In this document: positions 1 to 9,526 of the stretch, piece by piece
Position numbering within the stretch: position 1 is the first letter of the stretch
How the letters are laid out: the number at the start of each line of letters is the position of its first letter
Source of the DNA: Escherichia phage vB_EcoM_E9
Sequence record: PP886229
Length of the DNA: 64,000 bases
Strand: one strand, 5' to 3'
The notes under the pieces: generated by a model
What the model was told of the DNA's origin: nothing
Databases searched by the model: none
What the model saw: only the letters and a program-made list of their open reading frames with translations
Position numbers and translations under genes: made by a program

Positions 1-1050
1 GCCCCCTTAACATTCTCTTAACAATTTCTTAACAATCCCTACATAGTTATGCTTGTTAGAGACTTGTTAGCCCCTTGTTAAATCTCTGTTAAGACCACGT
101 AAAAGCCTTGTAAGAGTCTTTAGCATAGCCTTTAAAGCCTCTGTAAAGCCCTATAAAGAGGTGTCTACATAGTTGGGGTGTAATTACTAGGAAGAGACTT
201 AAAAGAGCTTACAAAGAGCTATAGAGAACTTTTAAGAGGTATGTTTAGAGAATCACTAAGAAAGAGAGGGAACTATAGACCAAGAGATAGTGACCATGTT
301 AATAGCTTGTTAAAAAGATTAAACACTTGTTAGGAATTTGTTAATTATCTTAACAAAATAACTCTTAAAAATTAACTTGTTAGCTCTTATTAGTCATCTG
401 TTAAGACTCTGTAAAACCTATGTATCAACTGTTAAGAAACTGTTACACCCTTGTTAGCTCTGTTAAGAATCTGTTAAGACCTCTGAAGAGATGTTAAGAG
501 GTTGTAAGAACTGTTAAGAGATTGTTAAGGATATTTTAAAATTTTGCAAAGGGGATGTTACAGGGATGTTAAGGGCTACCAAGCAGATATACATCTTCTA
601 CAGATATTTTTGAGTTCCTTCAAAGACCCTAAAAAATGACTTGATAACCCTATTTTATAAAAATTTTAAAATTCTGAATAATTACCTAGACAGTCTTTTA
701 AAAATACAGGCATAAACAGGCTTATAAGATACCTTGTTAGTACCGTGTTAGACCTTGTGAGATAAGGTCTGAAAAGATATTCCTGTTAAGTTTGTTAAAA
801 CAGTCTATATAGAGGCTTAGTAATACCTAGTGAACACCTATAGAGGGTAACATAGCTAACCTAGAGATTAAGAGGTGTATAGGGGCTTCTAAGAGGGTGT
901 AGAGGTGTGGTTAAGGTGATTGTATAGGTTGCTAAGAAGGCTTGTTAGAGGGCTATTTAGAAGGTTTATACAGAGGGCTATTAAGACCACTAGATAGTTA
1001 CTAAGATACTATATAGTACTATATAACTATATATAGAGAGTAAGCTTAAG
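1..1050. repeat. Non-coding region saturated with short direct repeats, core TGTTA(A/G) (CTTGTTAG, CTGTTAAG, ATGTTAAG variants), more than 30 copies
   Basis: No ORF in the track before 1055; motif recurs at e.g. 60-100, 300-350, 400-530, 730-800, 1050-1065. Confidence 0.7.
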
Positions 1051-1074
1051 AAGGATGTTAAGAAGGGTAGATAT

Positions 1075-1083
1075 TTATCCACA
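1075..1083 (+). promoter_or_regulatory. Single DnaA-box-like 9-mer TTATCCACA next to an AT-rich stretch (1110-1160)
   Basis: Exact consensus string; a single 9-mer could occur by chance. Confidence 0.2.
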
Positions 1084-1193
1084 TATGATGGTGACCCAGA
1101 GGTTGGGACAACCGATGAAATTTTATAAAAATTATAAATTTCGTAAAATTTACTCAATAAAAAGCCCCCAATTAAGGAGGCTCTTAAGATATT

Positions 1194-1787
1194 TTAAATC
1201 AGTGTTTCCAGAACTGTCTTCAGTGATGACTTGGTTGTCTGATAAAAATGAGTAAATCCATTGTTGTTATCGAATACCTGCATCATGATATCATCTCCCT
1301 TGATTGGGTACACTCGAATATCATAGTGAAACCCATTAAAGACAGCAGAACCATTACAGAATGAACTAAAGTCATCCACTGAGATATACTCTTCATGTCC
1401 TGTGATTTTTATACAGATACCTTTACTCGGTCTCTTAGGATTGATATCTTCCATCACAGACATACTCTGTCCACCAAGAGATACCATAGTGACCACTTTA
1501 CGGTTCTTCTGTCTAAAGTACATCTTAACTTTCTGTAAAGTGTCTTCATAGAACGGATAAGACTTCTCTACAAAGATTCCTTCAAGTGGCTCTTTACCAT
1601 TTTGAACCTCTCTGTAACCCCGTACTGCAAAGATAATTTGTTCTAACCTATTAAGGCTTTCTTCGTAGAGTGCTCCACGAATATCACTCCAATCAAGGAC
1701 TAGGTAGTTACCTTCAACATCTTTTAAGTTATCTTTTTCCATAGCTATCACACCATTATCGTAAAACTTGGTAAGCTGGAACTGCAA
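1194..1787 (-). CDS. hypothetical protein (ORFan block)
   Basis: 197 aa ORF, part of a co-oriented tightly packed minus-strand block. Confidence 0.5.
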   Translation of the reverse strand: MQFQLTKFYDNGVIAMEKDNLKDVEGNYLVLDWSDIRGALYEESLNRLEQIIFAVRGYREVQNGKEPLEGIFVEKSYPFYEDTLQKVKMYFRQKNRKVVTMVSLGGQSMSVMEDINPKRPSKGICIKITGHEEYISVDDFSSFCNGSAVFNGFHYDIRVYPIKGDDIMMQVFDNNNGFTHFYQTTKSSLKTVLETLI

Positions 1788-2220
1788 ACTTGTTGCCGTT
1801 GTTCTTAATGAGGTCTTCTTCTGTTACTAAGAATGTAATCCCACATAAGTGTGTGTAGTGGCTATCATACTCAAATATTTTAAGTAAGTATTTACCATCA
1901 TGGTAAACAGATTCTACTACACCTTTTGCAACAATCTTTCCAGTCTTGAAGTCTTTAAGGTGGTATACGTTACCAACTTTAGGAACTGTTTTCATCTCAG
2001 GTTCTTTTAGTTTCTCACCAACTTCTACATCACCTAGTAAGTGAGAACTTTCAAAAGCTACATGTTGCATATAAGCCTCTGAGCATTCCCAGATAAAACA
2101 ATGCACAAGAACCTTAGCTGCATGTCTTGAACAATTCAACTTATCACAAATCTCTTTGTACATTTCATCTTTAGTTGAATTGGTAAGCATTGCTTTTCGA
2201 ACGACTTCTTTAATTTTCAT
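1756..2220 (-). CDS. hypothetical protein
   Basis: 154 aa ORF in the packed minus-strand block. Confidence 0.5.
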   Translation of the reverse strand: MKIKEVVRKAMLTNSTKDEMYKEICDKLNCSRHAAKVLVHCFIWECSEAYMQHVAFESSHLLGDVEVGEKLKEPEMKTVPKVGNVYHLKDFKTGKIVAKGVVESVYHDGKYLLKIFEYDSHYTHLCGITFLVTEEDLIKNNGNKFAVPAYQVLR

Positions 2221-2638
2221 AAGCTCTCCGAATAACCTTATTAAGCATCTCTAAAGTCAGCTTTCCAGATTCTAAATGTGGCACAATAAGTTTTAAAGCT
2301 TTTTCAACATCATGCACAACATCTATTATACCTTCTGCATAGGCTTCTACAAGGATATCTTTTACATTTTGTGATTTACCTTTTTGTGGTATCACTAGAC
2401 GCATATCAAACTCATTTGCTTGAGGATGGTTCTTACCTTGCCAATAACCGTCTTTGTTAAAGCTGATGTAGTCACCGTGGTAAAAGTGTACACCATGAGC
2501 TTTAAACTTCTCCAGCACAAGGCATTGAATTGGGTATTCAGTATTCCACTCCCTGACTCCTATAACCTTCACTGTTGCGATGTACTCCTGTGTTTTTGTA
2601 TCTATGATGTCAAGTTCTTGACCAGCTATGATTTGCAT
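2210..2638 (-). CDS. hypothetical protein
   Basis: 142 aa ORF, overlaps the downstream gene start. Confidence 0.5.
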   Translation of the reverse strand: MQIIAGQELDIIDTKTQEYIATVKVIGVREWNTEYPIQCLVLEKFKAHGVHFYHGDYISFNKDGYWQGKNHPQANEFDMRLVIPQKGKSQNVKDILVEAYAEGIIDVVHDVEKALKLIVPHLESGKLTLEMLNKVIRRAYEN

Positions 2639-2692
2639 ATTCGCTACCTTATAAGTTCCTACAAAGGGGCTATCAAGTAACCCCTCAAGTTA

Positions 2693-2917
2693 TTACTCAG
2701 ACTTTTCAGTCTTCTTATCGGATTTCTTACTAGTCTTCTTCTCAGCTTTCTGCTCAGGTTCCTTCTCAGAAGTTGCCTTGATAACCATATCAAGAAGCTC
2801 TGATAAGTCACTCTTCAGCAGAGTAACAGGCTGCTCATTGTAGAAGTTTTTGTCAAGATAAACTTTGAACTCTTCAATAGAAGGAAATCCAAAAATTGGT
2901 ACAGGTGTCTTAATCAT
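2693..2917 (-). CDS. hypothetical small protein with Lys/Glu-rich C-terminus
   Basis: 74 aa ORF. Confidence 0.4.
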   Translation of the reverse strand: MIKTPVPIFGFPSIEEFKVYLDKNFYNEQPVTLLKSDLSELLDMVIKATSEKEPEQKAEKKTSKKSDKKTEKSE

Positions 2918-2993
2918 TACTTAGTTTCTCCATAGGCATCTTTTAAGATTGCCTTGTTAATCATTTCAGCGATTGCAAAACGAACACATACAG

Positions 2994-3497
2994 CTATAAT
3001 TGTAGGTTGCATTCTTTACTTACCTCTTCAAGTTTAACCTCAGAGTCCTTAAGTCGTTTCTTATGAACTCTGAATCTCATTAGTGCGATGATGATACCAA
3101 CTAAAGGAACAGCATACAAGTACCAAACATCATACCCCTTTGCAGTAATCTGTGTAATGGTCAAGTCTTGAGCTATGGAACTGATTGCTGATACTGCCAG
3201 TAATGTTGCTAAGAAAAATGCCAGTACCATTACCGTACTTAAACAACCTCTGGCATGGTGTTCATGCTTAATGCACTTATTCTTTTCGTCAACAACCCTG
3301 TTATAGTCGTTTGTAAAGTCTCTGTAGAAAGCTTTCAAGTATTCTTTATTGTAGCCTTCAAAGCAACCTGTACCGTACCAATAATCACCACCAAAATGTG
3401 CTATGATACCAGTGTCACCATTCGGTTTAGTTACTCTCAAAGAGGTGTGATGACGAGTGTCTTGATAATCTATTTTGTATCTTTCTTCGTAAATCAT
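2994..3497 (-). CDS. putative membrane protein
   Basis: 167 aa; two hydrophobic helices near the C-terminus (LSTVMVLAFFLATLLAV, YAVPLVGIIIALM). Confidence 0.5.
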   Translation of the reverse strand: MIYEERYKIDYQDTRHHTSLRVTKPNGDTGIIAHFGGDYWYGTGCFEGYNKEYLKAFYRDFTNDYNRVVDEKNKCIKHEHHARGCLSTVMVLAFFLATLLAVSAISSIAQDLTITQITAKGYDVWYLYAVPLVGIIIALMRFRVHKKRLKDSEVKLEEVSKECNLQL

Positions 3498-3712
3498 TTT
3501 CTAATCCCTCTCAATCGTTTGTTCCACTCAAGGTCAACAAGTCTTTGTAGTACTTTACCTCTAGGTGTTACACCTTTTAAATCTGCATCATAGCAATGGT
3601 AAAAGTCACCTTCAGCGTGTTTACCATAGCATTTTCTGATGTTCTGACTCCTACGATACTGCTCTAATAGGGACAGTTTGTAGTAATCTTCAACTGTAGT
3701 TAGTTTTTTCAT
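3494..3712 (-). CDS. hypothetical protein
   Basis: 72 aa ORF, stop/start overlap with neighbour. Confidence 0.4.
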   Translation of the reverse strand: MKKLTTVEDYYKLSLLEQYRRSQNIRKCYGKHAEGDFYHCYDADLKGVTPRGKVLQRLVDLEWNKRLRGIRK

Positions 3713-3795
3713 TCTTTCACCACGTATCTTCTCAAGAAACTAAAAAGGGAACTACCTCTCGATAGCTCCCATCATAGTTAATGTTGTATATTCGG

Positions 3796-4377
3796 TCAAG
3801 AGTATTTTTTAGGCAGTAATGCACTGCGCTTGTTGCTCTCTTCACTCAATAGTGCGATAAACTCATCACCTTTCCCTTTCCACGGGCTGAATGTAGGTAT
3901 GTGTTCTCTGATAGCCTCAATCACTGTCTTTAGTGCGTTATTCTTTAACCACCAATCAGACACTGCCGAAGCTACAATGTAATAAGCACCATCATCTGTG
4001 AAGATTGGCTCAGAGATACATGGTGAAATCATAGTTGTAATGATAGAGCCATTATTCATGTAGTATGTTCTTTTTTCAACCTTGTCAAGAAGCTTGTGAA
4101 GGTCTGCAAAGAGACTTACCACCTCTTTATGGTCAATATCTTTTTCAAGATTTGCTCTGTACTTTAATAGTGCAGCATCAACCTCTTTATCATTGAATTT
4201 GAAGTACTGGACTTCTTCATTCACACATACACTGATATTGTTAGTGTTTATCGTCAATTTGCACAGTTTGACTGGAGAGTTGATGTTGGTCTGAAAAAGT
4301 GCTACACAGCCTTCTACATTTCCGAAATGTTTTACTAATGTAACTTCTGGTTGGATGTGTTCATGCTCTTCTGACAT
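3796..4377 (-). CDS. hypothetical protein
   Basis: 193 aa ORF. Confidence 0.5.
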   Translation of the reverse strand: MSEEHEHIQPEVTLVKHFGNVEGCVALFQTNINSPVKLCKLTINTNNISVCVNEEVQYFKFNDKEVDAALLKYRANLEKDIDHKEVVSLFADLHKLLDKVEKRTYYMNNGSIITTMISPCISEPIFTDDGAYYIVASAVSDWWLKNNALKTVIEAIREHIPTFSPWKGKGDEFIALLSEESNKRSALLPKKYS

Positions 4378-4721
4378 TATAGTTTCCTCATTAAATACTT
4401 TTTAAGTTGTGTGTTAGGTTTCTCAAAAACTTCTATAGAAGATATCTTGACAGACTCACCACGCATACCTGTATGTTTAAATATATAATACTCTAACATC
4501 CCTATGTACTTTGCTGGTAAGTCATACTTAACGTACACCGTTACAGAATCCTCAAATTCAACAACCTTTGTACCATCTTTGTAGTTAAACTCTTTAGGGT
4601 GGTTGTAATTGTCGATGTCGTACATTAAAAAGAGTCTTTTCCGTTGCATGTCGAGCTTGTTGGTTAAAGACTCTTTGATATCTGAGAAGTTTTTGTACAC
4701 TGTGACATGGAGATTACTCAT
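4377..4721 (-). CDS. hypothetical protein
   Basis: 114 aa ORF. Confidence 0.5.
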   Translation of the reverse strand: MSNLHVTVYKNFSDIKESLTNKLDMQRKRLFLMYDIDNYNHPKEFNYKDGTKVVEFEDSVTVYVKYDLPAKYIGMLEYYIFKHTGMRGESVKISSIEVFEKPNTQLKKYLMRKL

Positions 4722-5007
4722 CGTTAAACTCTCTGACGAAGAAATAGTTGACTTTATTATTACCTACCATAAGGTCAAAGCAGGTATTCTCAAAAGGTTT
4801 GTTGTAGGCATCGTATGAAGTGTACGTATCAGCTACTTGTTTAGTATTGAGCTTTTTACTTGATGGATTTAAGAGGCCACCATACAGTTTCTTGATAGCC
4901 TCTTCTACAACAGACCAGATGATTTCGTCAGTAATTTCTTCGTACAGGTCAAGTTCACGCTCTAGTGAGAAGTCACAAATAGGGAAAATAACCTGTACTT
5001 TACTCAT
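4714..5007 (-). CDS. hypothetical protein
   Basis: 97 aa ORF. Confidence 0.45.
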   Translation of the reverse strand: MSKVQVIFPICDFSLERELDLYEEITDEIIWSVVEEAIKKLYGGLLNPSSKKLNTKQVADTYTSYDAYNKPFENTCFDLMVGNNKVNYFFVREFNDE

Positions 5008-5408
5008 TAACGAATAACCTGTGTGACTTGAATTGCTTCAGTTACGGACAAATCACCTACTTTCTCTTCTTTGATAAAAGTGAAGGTGAGTTCAACAGGT
5101 TCTTCCTCTTCTTCTTCTTGCTCAACTGGAATACCGTTAAGCTCATCAAAGATTGATTGGGTAGTCCAGTCTTCTCCACCATCTGGATAGTGGATGGCAT
5201 AAAGAGGAAACTCTAAATTATACCAAGCAAAAACAGGACAACCGTCTGCATCATCTCGGCATCTGTGGAGGTACGTATTTGTACCTTCAAAATGCAAATG
5301 AAGATTGCCATTCTTCTCAAATAGAAGAGCATCTCGCAGGTCTAGTTCCTTATTTTCGCTGTAACGACTGACATCAACTTTAACGTGGATATGACTGTTA
5401 TTATTCAT
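5007..5408 (-). CDS. hypothetical protein with poly-Glu stretch
   Basis: 133 aa ORF, EQEEEEEEP run. Confidence 0.5.
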   Translation of the reverse strand: MNNNSHIHVKVDVSRYSENKELDLRDALLFEKNGNLHLHFEGTNTYLHRCRDDADGCPVFAWYNLEFPLYAIHYPDGGEDWTTQSIFDELNGIPVEQEEEEEEPVELTFTFIKEEKVGDLSVTEAIQVTQVIR

Positions 5409-5799
5409 AAAAACCTCTCTCTGCTTGTTCGATTTTTGCTCTTAAAGTTTCGCAATGCTGTAAATGGTAGTTAGCTTCTTGTTCATGTGTTGCTAACTGC
5501 CTTTCAAGAACAGTTTTATAGTAACCTGCAAGTTGCTCTTTTGTCAATGGGTGCTCTGAAATAATATCAAGTCCACTTTCACCAAGAGGATTGAATTGTC
5601 CATGCTCATTGACATTGTAAGTCTCAAACTTGAACATACCATTGTTCACAGACTCAATAGGTGACAGTTCAACAAGCTCTACAGTAAACCGTGTATACAC
5701 CTTGTCGCCTCTTGAAACTACATTGTTTCCAATGATGCGTACAAGTGAACCGTTACGAGTGTACTTAAAAGTCCCAAAGTCACTAGCCCAAAGTTTCAT
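5401..5799 (-). CDS. hypothetical protein
   Basis: 132 aa ORF. Confidence 0.5.
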   Translation of the reverse strand: MKLWASDFGTFKYTRNGSLVRIIGNNVVSRGDKVYTRFTVELVELSPIESVNNGMFKFETYNVNEHGQFNPLGESGLDIISEHPLTKEQLAGYYKTVLERQLATHEQEANYHLQHCETLRAKIEQAERGFYE

Positions 5800-5824
5800 A
5801 GTTTTCTCCTTAGAAAATAAAAAA

Positions 5825-5840
5825 GGCTCCCGAAGGAGCC
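5825..5840 (-). terminator. Rho-independent terminator hairpin (GGCTCC-CGAA-GGAGCC) with U-run on the minus strand
   Basis: Perfect 6-bp GC-rich stem; A-run 5813-5824 on plus strand. Confidence 0.6.
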
Positions 5841-5850
5841 TATGAAGATA

Positions 5851-6315
5851 TTACTTTGGATATACACTGTCAAGATAAATGTCAGCTTCCATTCTACGTC
5901 TGTTTTTCAAGCCGTTTGAAGTGACCTTCTCACCTTTGACTGTAATCTTGTTCCACCACTGCATAGCTTCTGCACAACCTACCTTATTACCAGCATTGTG
6001 GCGCTTGATAAATGTAGAATCCTGCATAGCTGTGATACCGATGTTGTATGTTTCACTTACAAGTGCATCGAACTCATTCTGAGAAGTAGGAACCTTGATA
6101 GCTTTGTTCACTGCTGCAACAAACTTTTCAACATCTGCGAGAAGATACTGTTCAGCTTGTTCAGCAGTAATTTTCATACCCATCTTAACAGGTTTTCCGT
6201 CAATACGGATTGTGCCATACCCAATTGTTGGGATTCCGGCAGAGTCTTTGTAAGCCTCTAACTTCAGACCTTCAAAGAACTTAATAGCTTCTAAACCTTT
6301 TCTTGAGAGTTGCAT
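5851..6315 (-). CDS. phage lysozyme (GH24, T4-lysozyme-like endolysin)
   Basis: 154 aa; N-terminal E-x8-D-x5-T catalytic-triad spacing in FEGLKLEAYKDSAGIPTIGYGT. Confidence 0.8.
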   Translation of the reverse strand: MQLSRKGLEAIKFFEGLKLEAYKDSAGIPTIGYGTIRIDGKPVKMGMKITAEQAEQYLLADVEKFVAAVNKAIKVPTSQNEFDALVSETYNIGITAMQDSTFIKRHNAGNKVGCAEAMQWWNKITVKGEKVTSNGLKNRRRMEADIYLDSVYPK

Positions 6316-7448
6316 TATGCCTCCCCTGTTGGGTTAACTGTAACTGTTGCCGCATTAGATGTTACAGAGCCACCTGCACCAGTTACTACACAAGTGTAAG
6401 AACCTGCATCAGCAGCAGTTGCACCTTCTTTGGTGTAAGTTGCAGCAGTTGCGTCTGGGATGACTTCCTCACCTTTCTTCCACTGGTAACCTGTTGCACC
6501 AGTTGCCACAACATTCAGCGTTAAGGTCTCACCTTCAGTGATTTCTTGATTTGCTGGCTGTTGAGTGATTACAGGAAGAGCATTCACAGTAACTGTCGCT
6601 GCATTAGATGTGACTGAACCACCTGCACCAGTTACAACACAAGTGTAAGAACCTGCATCTGCTGGAAGCGCACCAGTCTTGCTATAGGTAGCATTTGTAG
6701 CTGAAGGGATGTTAGAGCCATCTTTCTTCCACTGGTAACCTGTTGCACCTATTGCAGTCACTTCCAAGTTGATGTTTCCACCCTCATTAATGGTCTGACT
6801 AGAAGGTTGCTTGGTAATCACTGGTAGTGCATTAACAGTAACTGTTGCCGCATCTGAAGTAACACTTGTTCCAGCCTCTCCAGACACAACACAAGTGTAT
6901 GAACCAGCATCAGAAGGTGCTACGGATTGTTTTGTGTAAGTTGCAGAGGTAGCACTGGAGATGTCCTCACCACCCTTCTTCCACTGATATCCAGTGGCGT
7001 TAGTTGCAATAACACTTAGGGTAAGTGTTCCACCCTCATTGACCGTTTGGTTTGTTGGTTGTTGAGTAATTGCTGGTGGCTTAATAGCATCCTTCAGCTT
7101 AGCATTCAACATTGAGAAAGGTTTAACTCTTGCCAGCCATTCACAGTAAATTGTGTCAACATCTTTACCGTTGATGATTGCATACTGTAAATCCATGAAG
7201 AAATCAGCAGTCCTCATCTGTGCACCAACACTGTAAAGGAGTTCATCACTAAAAGGGACTTTGTAGTCTGGTTTGTAGTCAAACTTCTCAACCTCTGCGA
7301 TATCAGCTTCAGGCCAATATGAACTATAGGTAAGTGGTAAAATAGCCTCTTGATATGTTCTAAAATCATATCTCTTACCAGCCTTTACATTTGCAATGAA
7401 GCCCTTTACAAATTCTTTGAAGTCTGGATAAGTCTTTGCTTTAATCAT
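6315..7448 (-). CDS. Ig-like domain protein (three tandem Ig-like repeats) with N-terminal domain paralogous to the next gene
   Basis: 377 aa; three ~80 aa repeats each ending ATGYQWKKG...DAGSYTCVV...ATVTV; DNA shows three ~250 bp tandem repeats. Confidence 0.7.
   Translation of the reverse strand: MIKAKTYPDFKEFVKGFIANVKAGKRYDFRTYQEAILPLTYSSYWPEADIAEVEKFDYKPDYKVPFSDELLYSVGAQMRTADFFMDLQYAIINGKDVDTIYCEWLARVKPFSMLNAKLKDAIKPPAITQQPTNQTVNEGGTLTLSVIATNATGYQWKKGGEDISSATSATYTKQSVAPSDAGSYTCVVSGEAGTSVTSDAATVTVNALPVITKQPSSQTINEGGNINLEVTAIGATGYQWKKDGSNIPSATNATYSKTGALPADAGSYTCVVTGAGGSVTSNAATVTVNALPVITQQPANQEITEGETLTLNVVATGATGYQWKKGEEVIPDATAATYTKEGATAADAGSYTCVVTGAGGSVTSNAATVTVNPTGEA
6330..7060. repeat. 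Three tandem ~250 bp coding repeats encoding the Ig-like domains
   Basis: Near-identical stretches such as CCACTGGTAACCTGTTGCACC recur at ~6480, ~6725 and ~6975. Confidence 0.7.
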
Positions 7449-7816
7449 TTCTTTTTAGCCTCTAAACGTGCGTTTAATCTGAAATAGCCTTTATGTTGTG
7501 GAGACACATCACCAACAACAATACCTTCAACTTTATAACCCTTACCGATTACATACTGGATATCCATAAGAAACGTACCAAGCCCAACAATGTGGAACAT
7601 TGGGTATAGTAACTTATCTGAATCTGGAAGTTTGATGTCTGGGTTATAGGTAGGTTGCTCGGCAGTTGGTGTAATATCCTCTTCAGGCCATCTACTCATT
7701 CTCCATGTTAAAGGTGATGAAATAACATCGTTAAGATTGTATTTTTCACCATTCTCCACGGAGCGGATATAGGATTGTAGGAAGCAATAAAAGTCTTTTG
7801 CACTCTTAGCCTTCAT
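7445..7816 (-). CDS. hypothetical protein, paralog of the N-terminal domain of the Ig-like protein
   Basis: 123 aa; shares the WPE(A/E)DI...FMD(L/I)QY(A/V)I motif pattern with the 6315-7448 product. Confidence 0.55.
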   Translation of the reverse strand: MKAKSAKDFYCFLQSYIRSVENGEKYNLNDVISSPLTWRMSRWPEEDITPTAEQPTYNPDIKLPDSDKLLYPMFHIVGLGTFLMDIQYVIGKGYKVEGIVVGDVSPQHKGYFRLNARLEAKKK

Positions 7817-7838
7817 TAAATATCCTTATAAATAGATA

Positions 7839-7854
7839 AAGGGGCGTTAGCCCC
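7839..7854 (-). terminator. Hairpin AGGGGC-GTTA-GCCCCT downstream of the 7864-8454 gene
   Basis: Perfect 6-bp stem; T-rich tract on minus strand. Confidence 0.4.
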
Positions 7855-7863
7855 TGTTTATAC

Positions 7864-8454
7864 TTAAGCTTTGGTCTTAAGTAGGTTCTTAAGCTTTTTG
7901 AGATTCATGCTCTCGTCAAACTTAAAACCAAATCCATTGACATAATCAATGAACTCGGATTTCTTACTAAGTGATAGTGCGTAACTCATATCAAAGTTAT
8001 TACTTGTTTCTGCGTCTGGACTAGAGTTCACATCAAATGAAATTTCTGTAGGTTCTTGTTTGCTGCTTCTCATATTATCAATCAATAGACAGGTATAGTT
8101 TGCTGGATAGAAGTTAACACTCCCGTCAACATACCCATACTTATTATTGTGAATGAGACTGGAAAATACCTTAAGAAATGTTTCTGAGTCGTGGCATACA
8201 AGTTTGAATTGACTACATTCACCAAGAGCCACTAAAGAGTAAGGGCTTTCACTATCAATGTCATAATTCGGATTTGATGTTGTAACCGTCACACGCATCA
8301 GGTTATTGGCAATAGTCTTCTGCTTAAAAGAATTTGGAACATAGTGAAGACCTCTGTCACACTGGTTAACCAACTCTTTCAATAGGTCGTTTGCATATGG
8401 TGAGTTAATTGATACAGAGCCATCACTATTGTAATTAAAACTTACTGTTAACAT
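7864..8454 (-). CDS. hypothetical protein
   Basis: 196 aa ORF. Confidence 0.5.
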   Translation of the reverse strand: MLTVSFNYNSDGSVSINSPYANDLLKELVNQCDRGLHYVPNSFKQKTIANNLMRVTVTTSNPNYDIDSESPYSLVALGECSQFKLVCHDSETFLKVFSSLIHNNKYGYVDGSVNFYPANYTCLLIDNMRSSKQEPTEISFDVNSSPDAETSNNFDMSYALSLSKKSEFIDYVNGFGFKFDESMNLKKLKNLLKTKA

Positions 8455-8681
8455 TTTTCAGTTCTCCTGCGATTTATAATTTTGCTGCAATAGAGAAACG
8501 AAGTAAACTCACTGGAAGAAACCATTAAGTGTTGTTCACTAGATTGAGCCATTGCCCTGAAATACATTCCAGTCAAAGCATCATAGTGACTATTCTTTCC
8601 AATTGAGGTTATATAGCCATGACTCTTTGCAGTTTGATATAAATCTATAATATCTGCGATTTCTAATTGGGAACTACACAT
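8448..8681 (-). CDS. hypothetical protein
   Basis: 77 aa ORF. Confidence 0.4.
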   Translation of the reverse strand: MCSSQLEIADIIDLYQTAKSHGYITSIGKNSHYDALTGMYFRAMAQSSEQHLMVSSSEFTSFLYCSKIINRRRTEKC

Positions 8682-8845
8682 AGATAATCCTCTTGTCTTC
8701 TGTAATTTTGAAAGAACAGGTACAGACCAATTTCAGAGGATGAATAGTAGAGTAACTCTACCCTTTTTGATTCCTTACAGTGATTGGTATTTTTACCTTT
8801 CTTCGGGTTATTTGATTTTCTCATTAAGTCTCCTTTGTAGAACAA
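8663..8845 (-). CDS. hypothetical small basic protein
   Basis: 60 aa ORF, first gene of the minus-strand block. Confidence 0.3.
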   Translation of the reverse strand: MFYKGDLMRKSNNPKKGKNTNHCKESKRVELLYYSSSEIGLYLFFQNYRRQEDYLCVVPN

Positions 8846-8923
8846 GGCAGACCTACAGCTTTAAGTAAGATGGTACAGTAATCCATACAACAAGTCAAGA
8901 ACTATTGCAAGTTAAAAAAGTTG

Positions 8924-8946
8924 TTGACAAAGTACTTGACAAGGTG
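8924..8946 (+). promoter_or_regulatory. Conserved double-TTGACA element TTGACAAAGTACTTGACAAGGTG in a divergent promoter region
   Basis: Near-identical 23-mer recurs at 51031-51053; both sit where gene orientation switches from minus to plus. Confidence 0.5.
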
Positions 8947-9073
8947 TAGGCTTATAAATACTTAGAAGATAACTTAAAAGGTTCCTCTAAAAAGGCTATT
9001 TAAACAGATATCTTTCTGGATATCTATCTTTTATCTTAAAAGCCTTTTAAGAGGTCTTATAAGAGGCATACCA

Positions 9074-9445
9074 ATGAAAAACAGAACAAACAAAGGCCAG
9101 TTTAAAAAAGGCCAGTCTGGAAACCCATCTGGAAGACCAAAAGGCTCTCGTAACAAAAGCTCACTTGTAAAAGCTCAACTGACCATTGATAATTCTGCTG
9201 AGTTTGCTGCAAAGTTGTTTGAAGCAATTGTTACAAGGGACGCTGCTAAGCTTGCAGAGTTCGGTTTAACGACTGACGATGTAAACCTGAAGTCGATGAT
9301 GGAAGCTGGTAAAACTATCATGACTCACTCAGCAGGTGAGATGAAAGCCATTGCAGCAGACACTAAGAAGACTCCTGATAACGGTGGTCAGTCTCAGACA
9401 GATAACAAACCAACGTTCTCTGCTGTAGCGACTCTCAAAAAATAA
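9074..9445 (+). CDS. hypothetical protein with N-terminal Gly/Lys-rich motif (GQFKKGQSGNPSGRPKG)
   Basis: 123 aa ORF. Confidence 0.5.
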   Translation: MKNRTNKGQFKKGQSGNPSGRPKGSRNKSSLVKAQLTIDNSAEFAAKLFEAIVTRDAAKLAEFGLTTDDVNLKSMMEAGKTIMTHSAGEMKAIAADTKKTPDNGGQSQTDNKPTFSAVATLKK

Positions 9446-9458
9446 TTTTAAAAGGTGT

Positions 9459-9493
9459 TGACAGACTCTACAAAGTTGCTCTAAAGTCTGTCA
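9459..9493 (+). promoter_or_regulatory. Putative promoter: TTGACA -35 hexamer embedded in an 8-bp palindrome (GACAGACT ... AGTCTGTC)
   Basis: TTGACA at 9459-9464; inverted repeat arms at 9461-9468 and 9486-9493. Confidence 0.35.
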
Positions 9494-9526
9494 CATCAAA
9501 CAACAAATGAGAGAAGAGAGTAAAAT

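Follow-up and report, generated by a model that had tools for sequence, protein, structure and literature searches.

What do the small genes packed just inside the left end of a Felix O1-like phage genome do, and how would they be expressed? The question is raised by Escherichia phage vB_EcoM_E9 (sequence record PP886229), of which we analysed a stretch of 64,000 nucleotides (nt), hereafter the window, and within it a block of small genes at positions 1194 to 5799. All of these genes lie on the minus strand, and they are named g1 to g11 from left (1194) to right (5799), with g4b standing for a twelfth. A preliminary description of the window had read the block as eleven ORFans with the typical look of a phage early region, and hence as candidate host-takeover or anti-defence genes. 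Comparison with the sequences of other phages identifies the region as a conserved accessory-gene module of Felix O1-like myophages, comprising twelve small genes. Our best explanation, to which we assign a probability of about 0.6, is that of a heterogeneous intracellular toolbox, encoded in two terminator-insulated, sigma-70-driven operons and expressed at early-to-middle times, whose products would act in the infected cell and would be mostly dispensable in laboratory hosts. New in this analysis are the twelfth gene, the predicted promoter-in-terminator junctions, the mobile g8-g7 pair, the predicted Whirly-like fold of g1 and the removal of an enzyme label from g10.

A conserved gene block at the left genome end

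Positions 1-8000 of the window matched 255 phage records by megablast, nearly all of them from Felixounavirus, the Felix O1-like myophages that infect E. coli, Salmonella, Shigella and Citrobacter; the best match was Escherichia phage vB_EcoM_H12 (95.3% identity, 100% query coverage). Several related records share their position 1 with the window, and the record of vB_EcoM-Pr103Blw annotates positions 1-581 as a short direct terminal repeat, which together indicate that the window begins at the physical left end of the genome, with the block just inside that end. The same block is present in Felix O1 (ORF24-ORF34, Felix01p050-p068), in Bas63 (gp112-gp122) and in wV8 (gp028-gp039). In Felix O1, ORF24 and ORF25 correspond to g1 and g2, ORF26, ORF27 and ORF28 to g4, g5 and g6, and ORF30, ORF31, ORF32, ORF33 and ORF34 to g7, g8, g9, g10 and g11; ORF35 is the endolysin and ORF36 an immunoglobulin (Ig)-repeat protein (6315-7448 in the window), the last two being gp123 and gp124 in Bas63. 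Cryo-electron microscopy has shown the Ig-repeat protein as Hex-Dec, a Hoc-like protein that decorates the capsid (PMC12609058). As endolysin and Hex-Dec lie upstream on the same strand, the block is situated downstream of two late functions.

The orthologues in Felix O1, Bas63 and wV8 share 72-100% amino acid identity with the proteins of the window, and gene order, strand, terminators and the position between endolysin and terminal non-coding region are all equal. The blocks differ in that g3 is present in this phage and missing from both Felix O1 and Bas63, in that ORF29 of Felix O1 (181 amino acids [aa], between g7 and g6) is missing here, and in that g7, g10 and g11 belong to allele groups other than those of some relatives. 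The block is thus ordinary and already catalogued, its products bearing the name hypothetical protein in hundreds of genomes, and the term ORFan does not suit its members: every block protein matches its own PHROG family over the full length, all of these families being of 'unknown function', and the block was found at the DNA level in 253 phage records.

The repeat array that had been noticed beside the block is indeed there. Positions 1-1190 are non-coding and repeat-rich, and their first ~580 bp match the annotated direct terminal repeat of Pr103Blw. This region is dense in short motifs, including TGTTAAGA, CTTGTTAG and CTTAACA, and exhibits a loose ~11-bp periodicity.

Coding capacity, selection and gene turnover

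All eleven open reading frames (ORFs) first described exist, with sizes of 72-193 aa (197 aa for g1 if it starts at TTG 1787). We compared them with their counterparts in seven related genomes (AYO145A, Pr103Blw, HMD-P10, Bas63 and Felix O1, and the Mooglevirus genomes Mijalis and Sf17). The ratio of nonsynonymous to synonymous divergence (dN/dS) was 0.0-0.3 in ten genes and 0.5-0.6 in g3, with dS reaching values above 2, which indicates that the block ORFs are real coding genes. Small size and the lack of recognisable domains might suggest frames that are open by chance in AT-rich DNA, or pseudogenes in decay, but ratios so far below 1 at such dS refute this idea, and it is also at odds with the retention of gene order and length across two genera, with translational coupling and ribosome-binding sites, with the detection of Felix O1 transcripts by reverse-transcription PCR (RT-PCR) and with the confident structural model of g1; we consider its chances negligible. 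The count of eleven itself fell short by one. Gene g4b (31 aa, 2917-3012, minus strand; bas63_0115, Mijalis101) shares 19 nt with g5 and 1 nt with g4, matches PHROG 6279 (E 3e-23) and is annotated in Bas63, Mijalis and Sf17, its protein sequence being conserved in Mooglevirus.

Constraint varies along the block, with dN/dS of 0.0-0.2 for g11, 0.0-0.3 for g9 and 0.02-0.05 within the genus for g8, the block's most constrained gene. Both g8 and g9 are almost invariant inside the genus, and a tblastn search with g8 returned 253 records, 194 of them at 95-99% identity. Amino acid identity to Mooglevirus is 48-69% for the block, whereas the endolysin reaches 86-88%, Hex-Dec 74-77% and ORF39 92%; by this measure the block genes evolve faster than the neighbouring genes. 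Sharply different allele groups of g7, g10 and g11 occur within the genus (for g7, 82-85% versus 99-100% identity, with dS up to 1.4), which points to recombination between alleles. Gene content varies as well: g3 is found in 115 records (about 45% of related records, g8 being found in 253), its alleles falling to 55% and about 25% identity, and ORF29 lies between g7 and g6 in Felix O1, HMD-P10 and Mooglevirus. When g1, g7 and g10 were searched against a collection of 5.8 billion proteins, each returned 21 to 128 clusters at 90% identity; the matches with a named source were all Ounavirinae phages or records labelled as bacterial, and most matches were unnamed.

Two hotspots of gene insertion can be recognised, one at 2638-2693 (the g4/g3/g2 junctions, where g3 is present or absent) and one at 3712-3796 (between g7 and g6, where ORF29 is present or absent). 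At the first of these, Sf17 carries a different gene of 98 aa.

Two operons headed by predicted promoters that abut terminators

The block had been described as one tight run of genes. Overlaps of 1-11 nt at six junctions among the eleven ORFs bear this out in part; however, one terminator lies inside the block (3770-3747) and another precedes g11, and the ORFs are separated by 83 nt from g7 to g6, 54 nt from g4 to g3 and 13 nt from g2 to g1. What we see are two operons, g11-g7 and g6-g1, each headed by a sigma-70-like promoter that abuts the preceding terminator hairpin. The terminator before g11 is identical in sequence to t35 of Felix O1, and the one inside the block to t29.

The first junction consists of predicted promoter 1 (5845-5873, minus strand; TTGACA-17-TATCTT), which overlaps the stop codon of the endolysin gene and finishes 3 nt short of the hairpin, and of the intrinsic terminator after the endolysin (5824-5841, minus strand; AGGCTCCTTCGGGAGCCT followed by a T-run). 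Operon 1 opens with g11 (5401-5799; 132 aa, gp122 in Bas63, PHROG 4266), which has an AAGGAG ribosome-binding site, and goes on with the very acidic g10 (5007-5408; 133 aa, gp121; net charge -18, with a poly-Glu linker), the acidic g9 (4714-5007; 97 aa, gp120, PHROG 4385; isoelectric point [pI] 4.5, net charge -7.5), g8 (4377-4721; 114 aa, gp119) and, as its final gene, g7 (3796-4377; 193 aa, gp118), which exists in two divergent allele groups. At the second junction, predicted promoter 2 (3771-3799, minus strand; TTGACC-17-TATGAT) overlaps the g7 stop codon with its -35 element and abuts with its -10 element the hairpin of the intrinsic terminator called t29 in Felix O1 (3747-3770, minus strand; GGGAGCTATCgagaGGTAGTTCCC followed by a T-run). 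The first gene of operon 2 in this phage is g6 (3494-3712; 72 aa, gp117, PHROG 4459; basic, pI 9.7), because ORF29 is absent here. It is followed by g5 (2994-3497; 167 aa, gp116), a predicted inner-membrane protein with two transmembrane (TM) segments, by g4b, by g4 (2693-2917; 74 aa, gp114), which has a conserved N-terminal part of 45 aa and a Lys/Glu-rich tail, by the variable g3 (2210-2638; 142 aa), which Mijalis lacks as well, by g2 (1756-2220; 154 aa, gp113), of which the N-terminal 65 aa are invariant across genera, and by g1 (182 aa, gp112), which extends from 1194 to 1742 with an ATG start or to 1787 with a TTG start. The terminator reported after the block was recovered as a hairpin with a T-run at 1162-1183 (minus strand; free energy [dG] -15.2 kcal/mol); it is kept across the genus, closes the leftward arm and faces the non-coding terminal region.

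Promoter-like sites against hairpins are uncommon in the window. Five of its 60 terminator-like hairpins have an abutting promoter-like site, where 1.5% is expected per random position, and the sole two abutting sites that score 10/12 on strong hairpins are the two block junctions. Both block promoters also belong to the roughly seven non-coding sigma-70-like sites in the window that score at least 10/12. Promoter 1 is kept in six Felixounavirus genomes and is weaker in Mooglevirus (TTGACG...TAGATT). For promoter 2, Mooglevirus has TTGACA-18-TATGAT and keeps the hairpin, with the sequence and length of the spacer changed; hexamers that are kept while the spacer diverges form the pattern expected of a functional promoter. 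A transcription start 6-9 nt past the -10 element would land within the 5' arm of the hairpin. We calculated for the terminator at 5841-5824 a dG of -12.9 kcal/mol in read-through RNA versus -8.3 to -0.7 in promoter-started RNA, and for the terminator at 3770-3747 a dG of -20.2 kcal/mol versus about -4.3, with loss of the stem.

These patterns suggest a model in which the module sits promoter-distal on the leftward arm, preceded by the late segment with Hex-Dec and the endolysin and followed by the left terminal repeat. For each translationally coupled operon, a host-type sigma-70 promoter would directly adjoin the 5' side of the terminator with which the previous segment closes, so that transcripts arriving from upstream would stop there, while promoter-started transcripts would begin in the hairpin 5' arm, would be unable to fold the hairpin and would continue. 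Expression of the block would thereby be independent of the upstream late genes, and unmodified host RNA polymerase would most likely transcribe it at early-to-middle times. What is shown is that the genes are real and conserved, how they are arranged, that virions lack their products and that two of them are conditionally important; promoter use, terminator escape and timing, like any host-directed activity of the products, are what we infer here.

Upstream of this, the first gene of the late ORF37/Hex-Dec/endolysin segment is a 123-aa ORF at 7445-7816 (minus strand; Felix O1 ORF37), just upstream of Hex-Dec. In the stretch before it (7816-7870, minus strand) no sigma-70-like promoter was seen; this stretch reads TATAAAC, hairpin GGGGCTAACGCCCC, TTTATCTATTTATAAGGA, and the AT-rich TATAAA-type elements might constitute a phage-specific, perhaps late, promoter. 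Without Ig repeats of its own, the ORF37 product corresponds to the N-terminal domain with which Hex-Dec binds the capsid, the two being paralogous (36% identity, 121 aa aligned, E 1e-17; PHROG 4463/3995 cross-match), and it could be a second, Ig-less decoration protein or a competitor.

Published data on the orthologous genes

The preliminary description had reckoned with the alternative that the products are virion components. Mass spectrometry of the Felix O1 virion found gp36 and gp23 and none of gp24-34 (PMC3185647, Table 4A), and among the products of at least 23 genes that make up the Bas63 virion, Hex-Dec is the only one reported to come from a gene beyond the structural module (PMC12609058). 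The block products are non-virion proteins.

End-point RT-PCR in Felix O1 placed the maxima of ORF24, 25, 26, 28, 29, 32, 33, 34 and 35 at 25 min, that of ORF31 at 5 min and those of ORF30, 36 and 37 at 60 min, with ORF27 unlisted (PMC3185647). Ten block ORFs were thus tested, of which eight fell in the 25-min ('middle') class and a single one each in the 5-min and 60-min classes; nine of the ten, all except ORF29, have an orthologue in the window. The same table puts the major capsid protein gp58 at 5 min, i.e. among the 'early' genes (PMC3185647). With the ORF30-34 operon spread over three classes and a capsid gene at 5 min, these timings are weak evidence either way. Our literature search found no transcriptome of any Felixounavirus or Ounavirinae phage.

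For Bas63, gp114 (g4) and gp116 (g5) are described as non-essential genes that gain in essentiality on E. coli S17-1, compared with the three other hosts, and the model of gp114 is said to resemble XseB (PMC11482910). These two block genes, for which published data are accessible, are dispensable on most hosts. In the PhageMaP experiments with 12 defence systems, the validated Bas63 counters (g77, g79, g80, g84, g85 and g130) all lie outside the block, and the validated triggers were g40 and g123, the latter being the neighbouring endolysin, with none in the block. The genus is not represented in two further essentiality screens of phages, nor is it mentioned in the accessory-gene screen of Silas et al.

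What the individual proteins suggest

The absence of recognisable domains was borne out: Pfam, NCBIfam and PADLOC gave no match above threshold on the block, Rfam gave nothing on positions 1-9500, and no paralogy was found among the block proteins. Nor did Pfam or PHROGs link any of them to a known family of anti-defence or host shut-off proteins. Structure prediction and remote homology searches, which had been proposed as the way forward, yielded a fold for g1 and no match for g2 and g10.

The model of g1 computed with AlphaFold2 (AF2) from a 39-sequence alignment has an overall predicted local distance difference test (pLDDT) score of 82, which exceeds 90 in residues 83-182; its topology is beta4-alpha-beta4-alpha, and the C-terminal domain is predicted to adopt a Whirly-like fold. 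In fold comparison the model matches Whirly-fold proteins rather than inhibitors. The proteins compared include plant Whirly/PBF-2, StWhy2, the trypanosome MRP1/MRP2, SsgB, Pur-alpha and PC4, with which g1 shares 7-13% sequence identity; unlike these, the g1 domain is acidic (pI 5.4, net charge -3, and likewise in the Mooglevirus orthologue) and is fused to an unrelated N-terminal domain of ~75 aa. The same fold occurs in SsgB-type proteins, described as cell-division proteins and not as nucleic-acid binders, and it is common to several uncharacterised proteins of 120-146 aa from Streptomyces and Bacillus phages. On the composition of the domain, binding of nucleic acid by g1 is not supported. 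In a bolder reading, the acidic Whirly-fold protein could sequester single-stranded nucleic acid or the proteins that bind it, or act as a mimic of either. A profile made from the g1 alignment detected 295 proteins at E<=1e-3 in a library of 1.84 billion proteins, and all but the first few of these matches cover only the ~75-aa N-terminal domain, which mostly stands at the N-terminus of proteins of 70-250 aa that have no common Pfam family. Full-length g1 is found only among the Ounavirinae-type matches.

The Mooglevirus orthologue of g1 (at 3308-3973 of its own genome) carries a very basic N-terminal extension of about 40-45 aa (pI 9.9), of which Felixounavirus keeps only a remnant upstream of the g1 ATG (QLTKFYDNGVIAME, aligning to ITKKCFKDLIEM). 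Because of this remnant the start of g1 is uncertain: TTG 1787 would overlap g2 by 32 nt, and ATG 1742 is the start used in related records.

The g10 protein has a variable N-terminal third, with the core and a C-terminal beta-hairpin invariant. Its AF2 model is all-beta, and comparison of this model with the PDB by Foldseek found nothing at E<0.8, the pLDDT of the model being only 68. In several records (e.g. PV469800, MN850647 and NC_042097) orthologues of g10 are labelled 'D-alanyl-D-alanine carboxypeptidase', which appears to be a propagated annotation error. Indeed, we rejected g10 as a LAS/VanY-type D-Ala-D-Ala carboxypeptidase, since the candidate zinc ligands, which such enzymes have as H-x(3-6)-D and H-x-H, are not conserved (H6, H8, H37 and H39 are replaced in orthologues), and since neither Pfam, with its Peptidase_M15/VanY profile, nor the fold comparison gives a match. 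In the bolder reading, g10, with its strong negative charge, variable N-terminal third and invariant core, could mimic nucleic acid or serve as a decoy for defences.

Likewise rejected was g7 as an AID/APOBEC-like deaminase: the Pfam SNAD1 match has an E-value of 0.0028 and 18 bits against a cutoff of 25, DUF5092 is also below threshold, the HxE and PCxxC motifs are not visible, and the homologues occur only in Ounavirinae, without a Pfam domain.

In g2, an invariant N-terminal module of 65 aa precedes a C-terminal domain in whose place Mooglevirus has a different one. Helix-turn-helix (HTH) matches to Sigma70_r4_2 and HTH_23 are sub-threshold (E~0.2), and a profile search of the PDB returned nothing. 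Within the N-terminal module, C30, H33, H40 and C46 are invariant across Felixounavirus and Mooglevirus, and the resulting pattern, C-x2-H-x6-H-x5-C, may be a small zinc-binding motif.

For g5 we predict a conserved soluble domain of 85 aa at the N-terminus, two TM segments (hydrophobic windows within 82-144) and a charged C-terminus, and an orthologue is annotated with two TM segments. When g5 was considered as a holin, two TM segments and a charged C-terminus were seen, yet the protein has 167 aa, and between its gene and that of the endolysin lie two terminators and five genes. Judged from its sequence, g11 has a beta-rich N-terminal and a helical C-terminal part.

Comparison with other phage systems

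Small early-gene clusters in other phages include the host-takeover module of SPO1, the pre-early genes of T5 and the hyperplastic regions of T4 with their promoter-early stem-loop (PeSL) cassettes. Like these, the block is a dense group near one end of the genome, made up of small non-structural genes that evolve fast and are largely dispensable, with predicted host-type promoters and interspersed terminators. It differs from them in that its genes are translationally coupled in two operons instead of having one promoter per gene, and in that it is not part of the terminal repeat, towards which its transcription runs. The typical look of an early region, which had been ascribed to the block, fits better across the terminal repeat, where the small genes of Bas63 have promoter/stem-loop cassettes of their own.

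In Bas63 (MZ501086, 2459-8244, bas63_0098-0111, across the terminal non-coding region) most of the small plus-strand genes are preceded by an intergenic cassette of ~85 bp. The cassette exists in two related types, the commoner being CTTTACA-aGGGGCTTA...TAAGCCCC-agataaagag...ctaaactGGAGaatct, a -35/-10-like promoter with an embedded stem-loop that resembles the T4-type promoter-early stem-loop cassettes. A search for this PeSL-like cassette in the 64-kb window found none.

The Erwinia phage phiEa21-4 (Kolesnikvirus) has two holin genes and two small hypothetical genes downstream of its endolysin. Two of its proteins are remote homologues of block proteins, gp10 of g8 (hidden Markov model E 8e-9) and gp11 of g7 (E 2e-5, with a shared WW...IE.I...F.PWK motif); the two genes are adjacent, stand in the same order as g8-g7 and are followed by a terminator. 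In contrast to g8-g7, they do not lie past the endolysin but on the plus-strand, rIIA-side arm, between polynucleotide kinase and spanins. For the other ten block genes no phiEa21-4 homologue was detectable. This distribution suggests that the block is a composite of an old mobile pair and of genes limited to Felixounavirus and Mooglevirus.

The block also bears some likeness to a holin-endolysin cassette, inasmuch as two-TM g5 is encoded downstream of the endolysin, where phiEa21-4 has its holin genes. It departs from such a cassette in the large N-terminal soluble domain of g5, in the two terminators and five genes that intervene, and in gp116 being non-essential except on S17-1.

Which explanation fits best

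An early host-takeover or anti-defence role of the block is plausible, and part of what led to that proposal has stood up: the genes are non-structural and fast-evolving, they are gained and lost, host-type promoters are predicted for them, and g4 and g5 have conditional importance. Taken strictly, as a true first-minutes early region whose products shut off the host or inhibit restriction, CRISPR or other defences, this explanation can also point to the charge profile of g10 (-18, with its variable N-terminal third) and g9 (-7.5), which is like that of DNA-mimic anti-restriction proteins, to the importance of the g4 and g5 orthologues on one host only, and to the 5-min peak of Felix O1 ORF31 (g8). 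The 25-min peak of eight of the ten Felix O1 block ORFs, with another at 60 min, does not agree with it, nor does the finding that validated Bas63 counters against the 12 defence systems lie elsewhere in the genome; moreover, no known anti-defence or shut-off family is matched, the layout is operon-like and unlike the promoter/stem-loop arrays across the terminus, and near-invariance in the genus, as in g8 and g9, is unusual for arms-race genes. We therefore regard a first-minutes takeover region as possible but rather unlikely. A lysis-associated late cluster, expressed by read-through of the terminators and with g5 (and g4b) as holin, antiholin or superinfection-exclusion membrane protein, is suggested by the position of the block directly past the endolysin on the same strand, by the 25-min class that most Felix O1 block ORFs share with the endolysin, by the TM segments and charged C-terminus of g5, by the lack of an annotated holin in Bas63 and by phiEa21-4, with its holin genes past the endolysin and its g8-g7 homologues next to spanins. 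Such expression would have to pass strong terminators, one before g11 (dG -12.9) and one that splits the block (-20.2); hydrophobicity is limited to g5 and possibly g4b, ten of the twelve products being soluble and without a link to lysis, and g5 itself has an atypical soluble domain of 85 aa and an orthologue, gp116, that is non-essential and more essential only on S17-1 (PMC11482910). This makes a lysis cluster improbable.

We judge it similarly improbable that the block supplies auxiliary factors of nucleic-acid metabolism, with g1 as a Whirly-type single-strand binder and g2 and g6 as nucleic-acid binders. The very basic N-terminal extension of the Mooglevirus g1, the basic character of g6 and the weak HTH-like matches of g2, together with its invariant Cys and His residues, would agree with such functions, but the Whirly-like domain of g1 is acidic and its fold is shared by SsgB-type proteins, the HTH matches of g2 stand at E-values of about 0.2 with an empty PDB profile search, and the replication genes are found elsewhere in the genome. 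A bolder proposal, that at least one block product, with g10 and g1 as candidates, is a new host- or defence-directed factor without described relatives, and that the junctions are perhaps a general device, seems to us doubtful.

The toolbox that we favour would be a heterogeneous one. Its members would include a two-TM inner-membrane protein (g5) with the neighbouring micro-peptide g4b, the strongly acidic g9 and g10, the basic g6, g2 with its invariant N-terminal module and exchangeable C-terminal domain, the Whirly-fold protein g1 and the ancient g8-g7 pair. Several points weigh against this explanation. The promoters are sigma-70-like matches, which are not proof of function, and the first -35 element is inside the endolysin coding sequence; some read-through from upstream into the block may occur; genes of one Felix O1 operon appear in three different RT-PCR time classes; and the statement that the products are mostly dispensable rests on general statements of the PhageMaP paper and on its description of gp114 and gp116.

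Implications for Felix O1-like phages

The block consists of catalogued, conserved hypothetical genes in a well-sequenced genus that is used for biocontrol of Salmonella and E. coli, and since a genome-wide knockout study already covers it, its detection by a sequence scan matters little in itself. What the analysis does remove is the misleading D-Ala-D-Ala carboxypeptidase label, which is spreading through annotations. As part of the bolder proposal, junctions with a promoter inside a terminator may serve these phages more widely to free accessory operons from late transcription. If it were true that one of the twelve proteins inhibits host processes or defences in a new way, the block would matter, and the places to look have been narrowed to g4 and g5, with their importance on one host, to the strongly acidic g10 and g9, to g1 with its Whirly-like fold, and to the g8-g7 pair, the oldest and most constrained part of the block.

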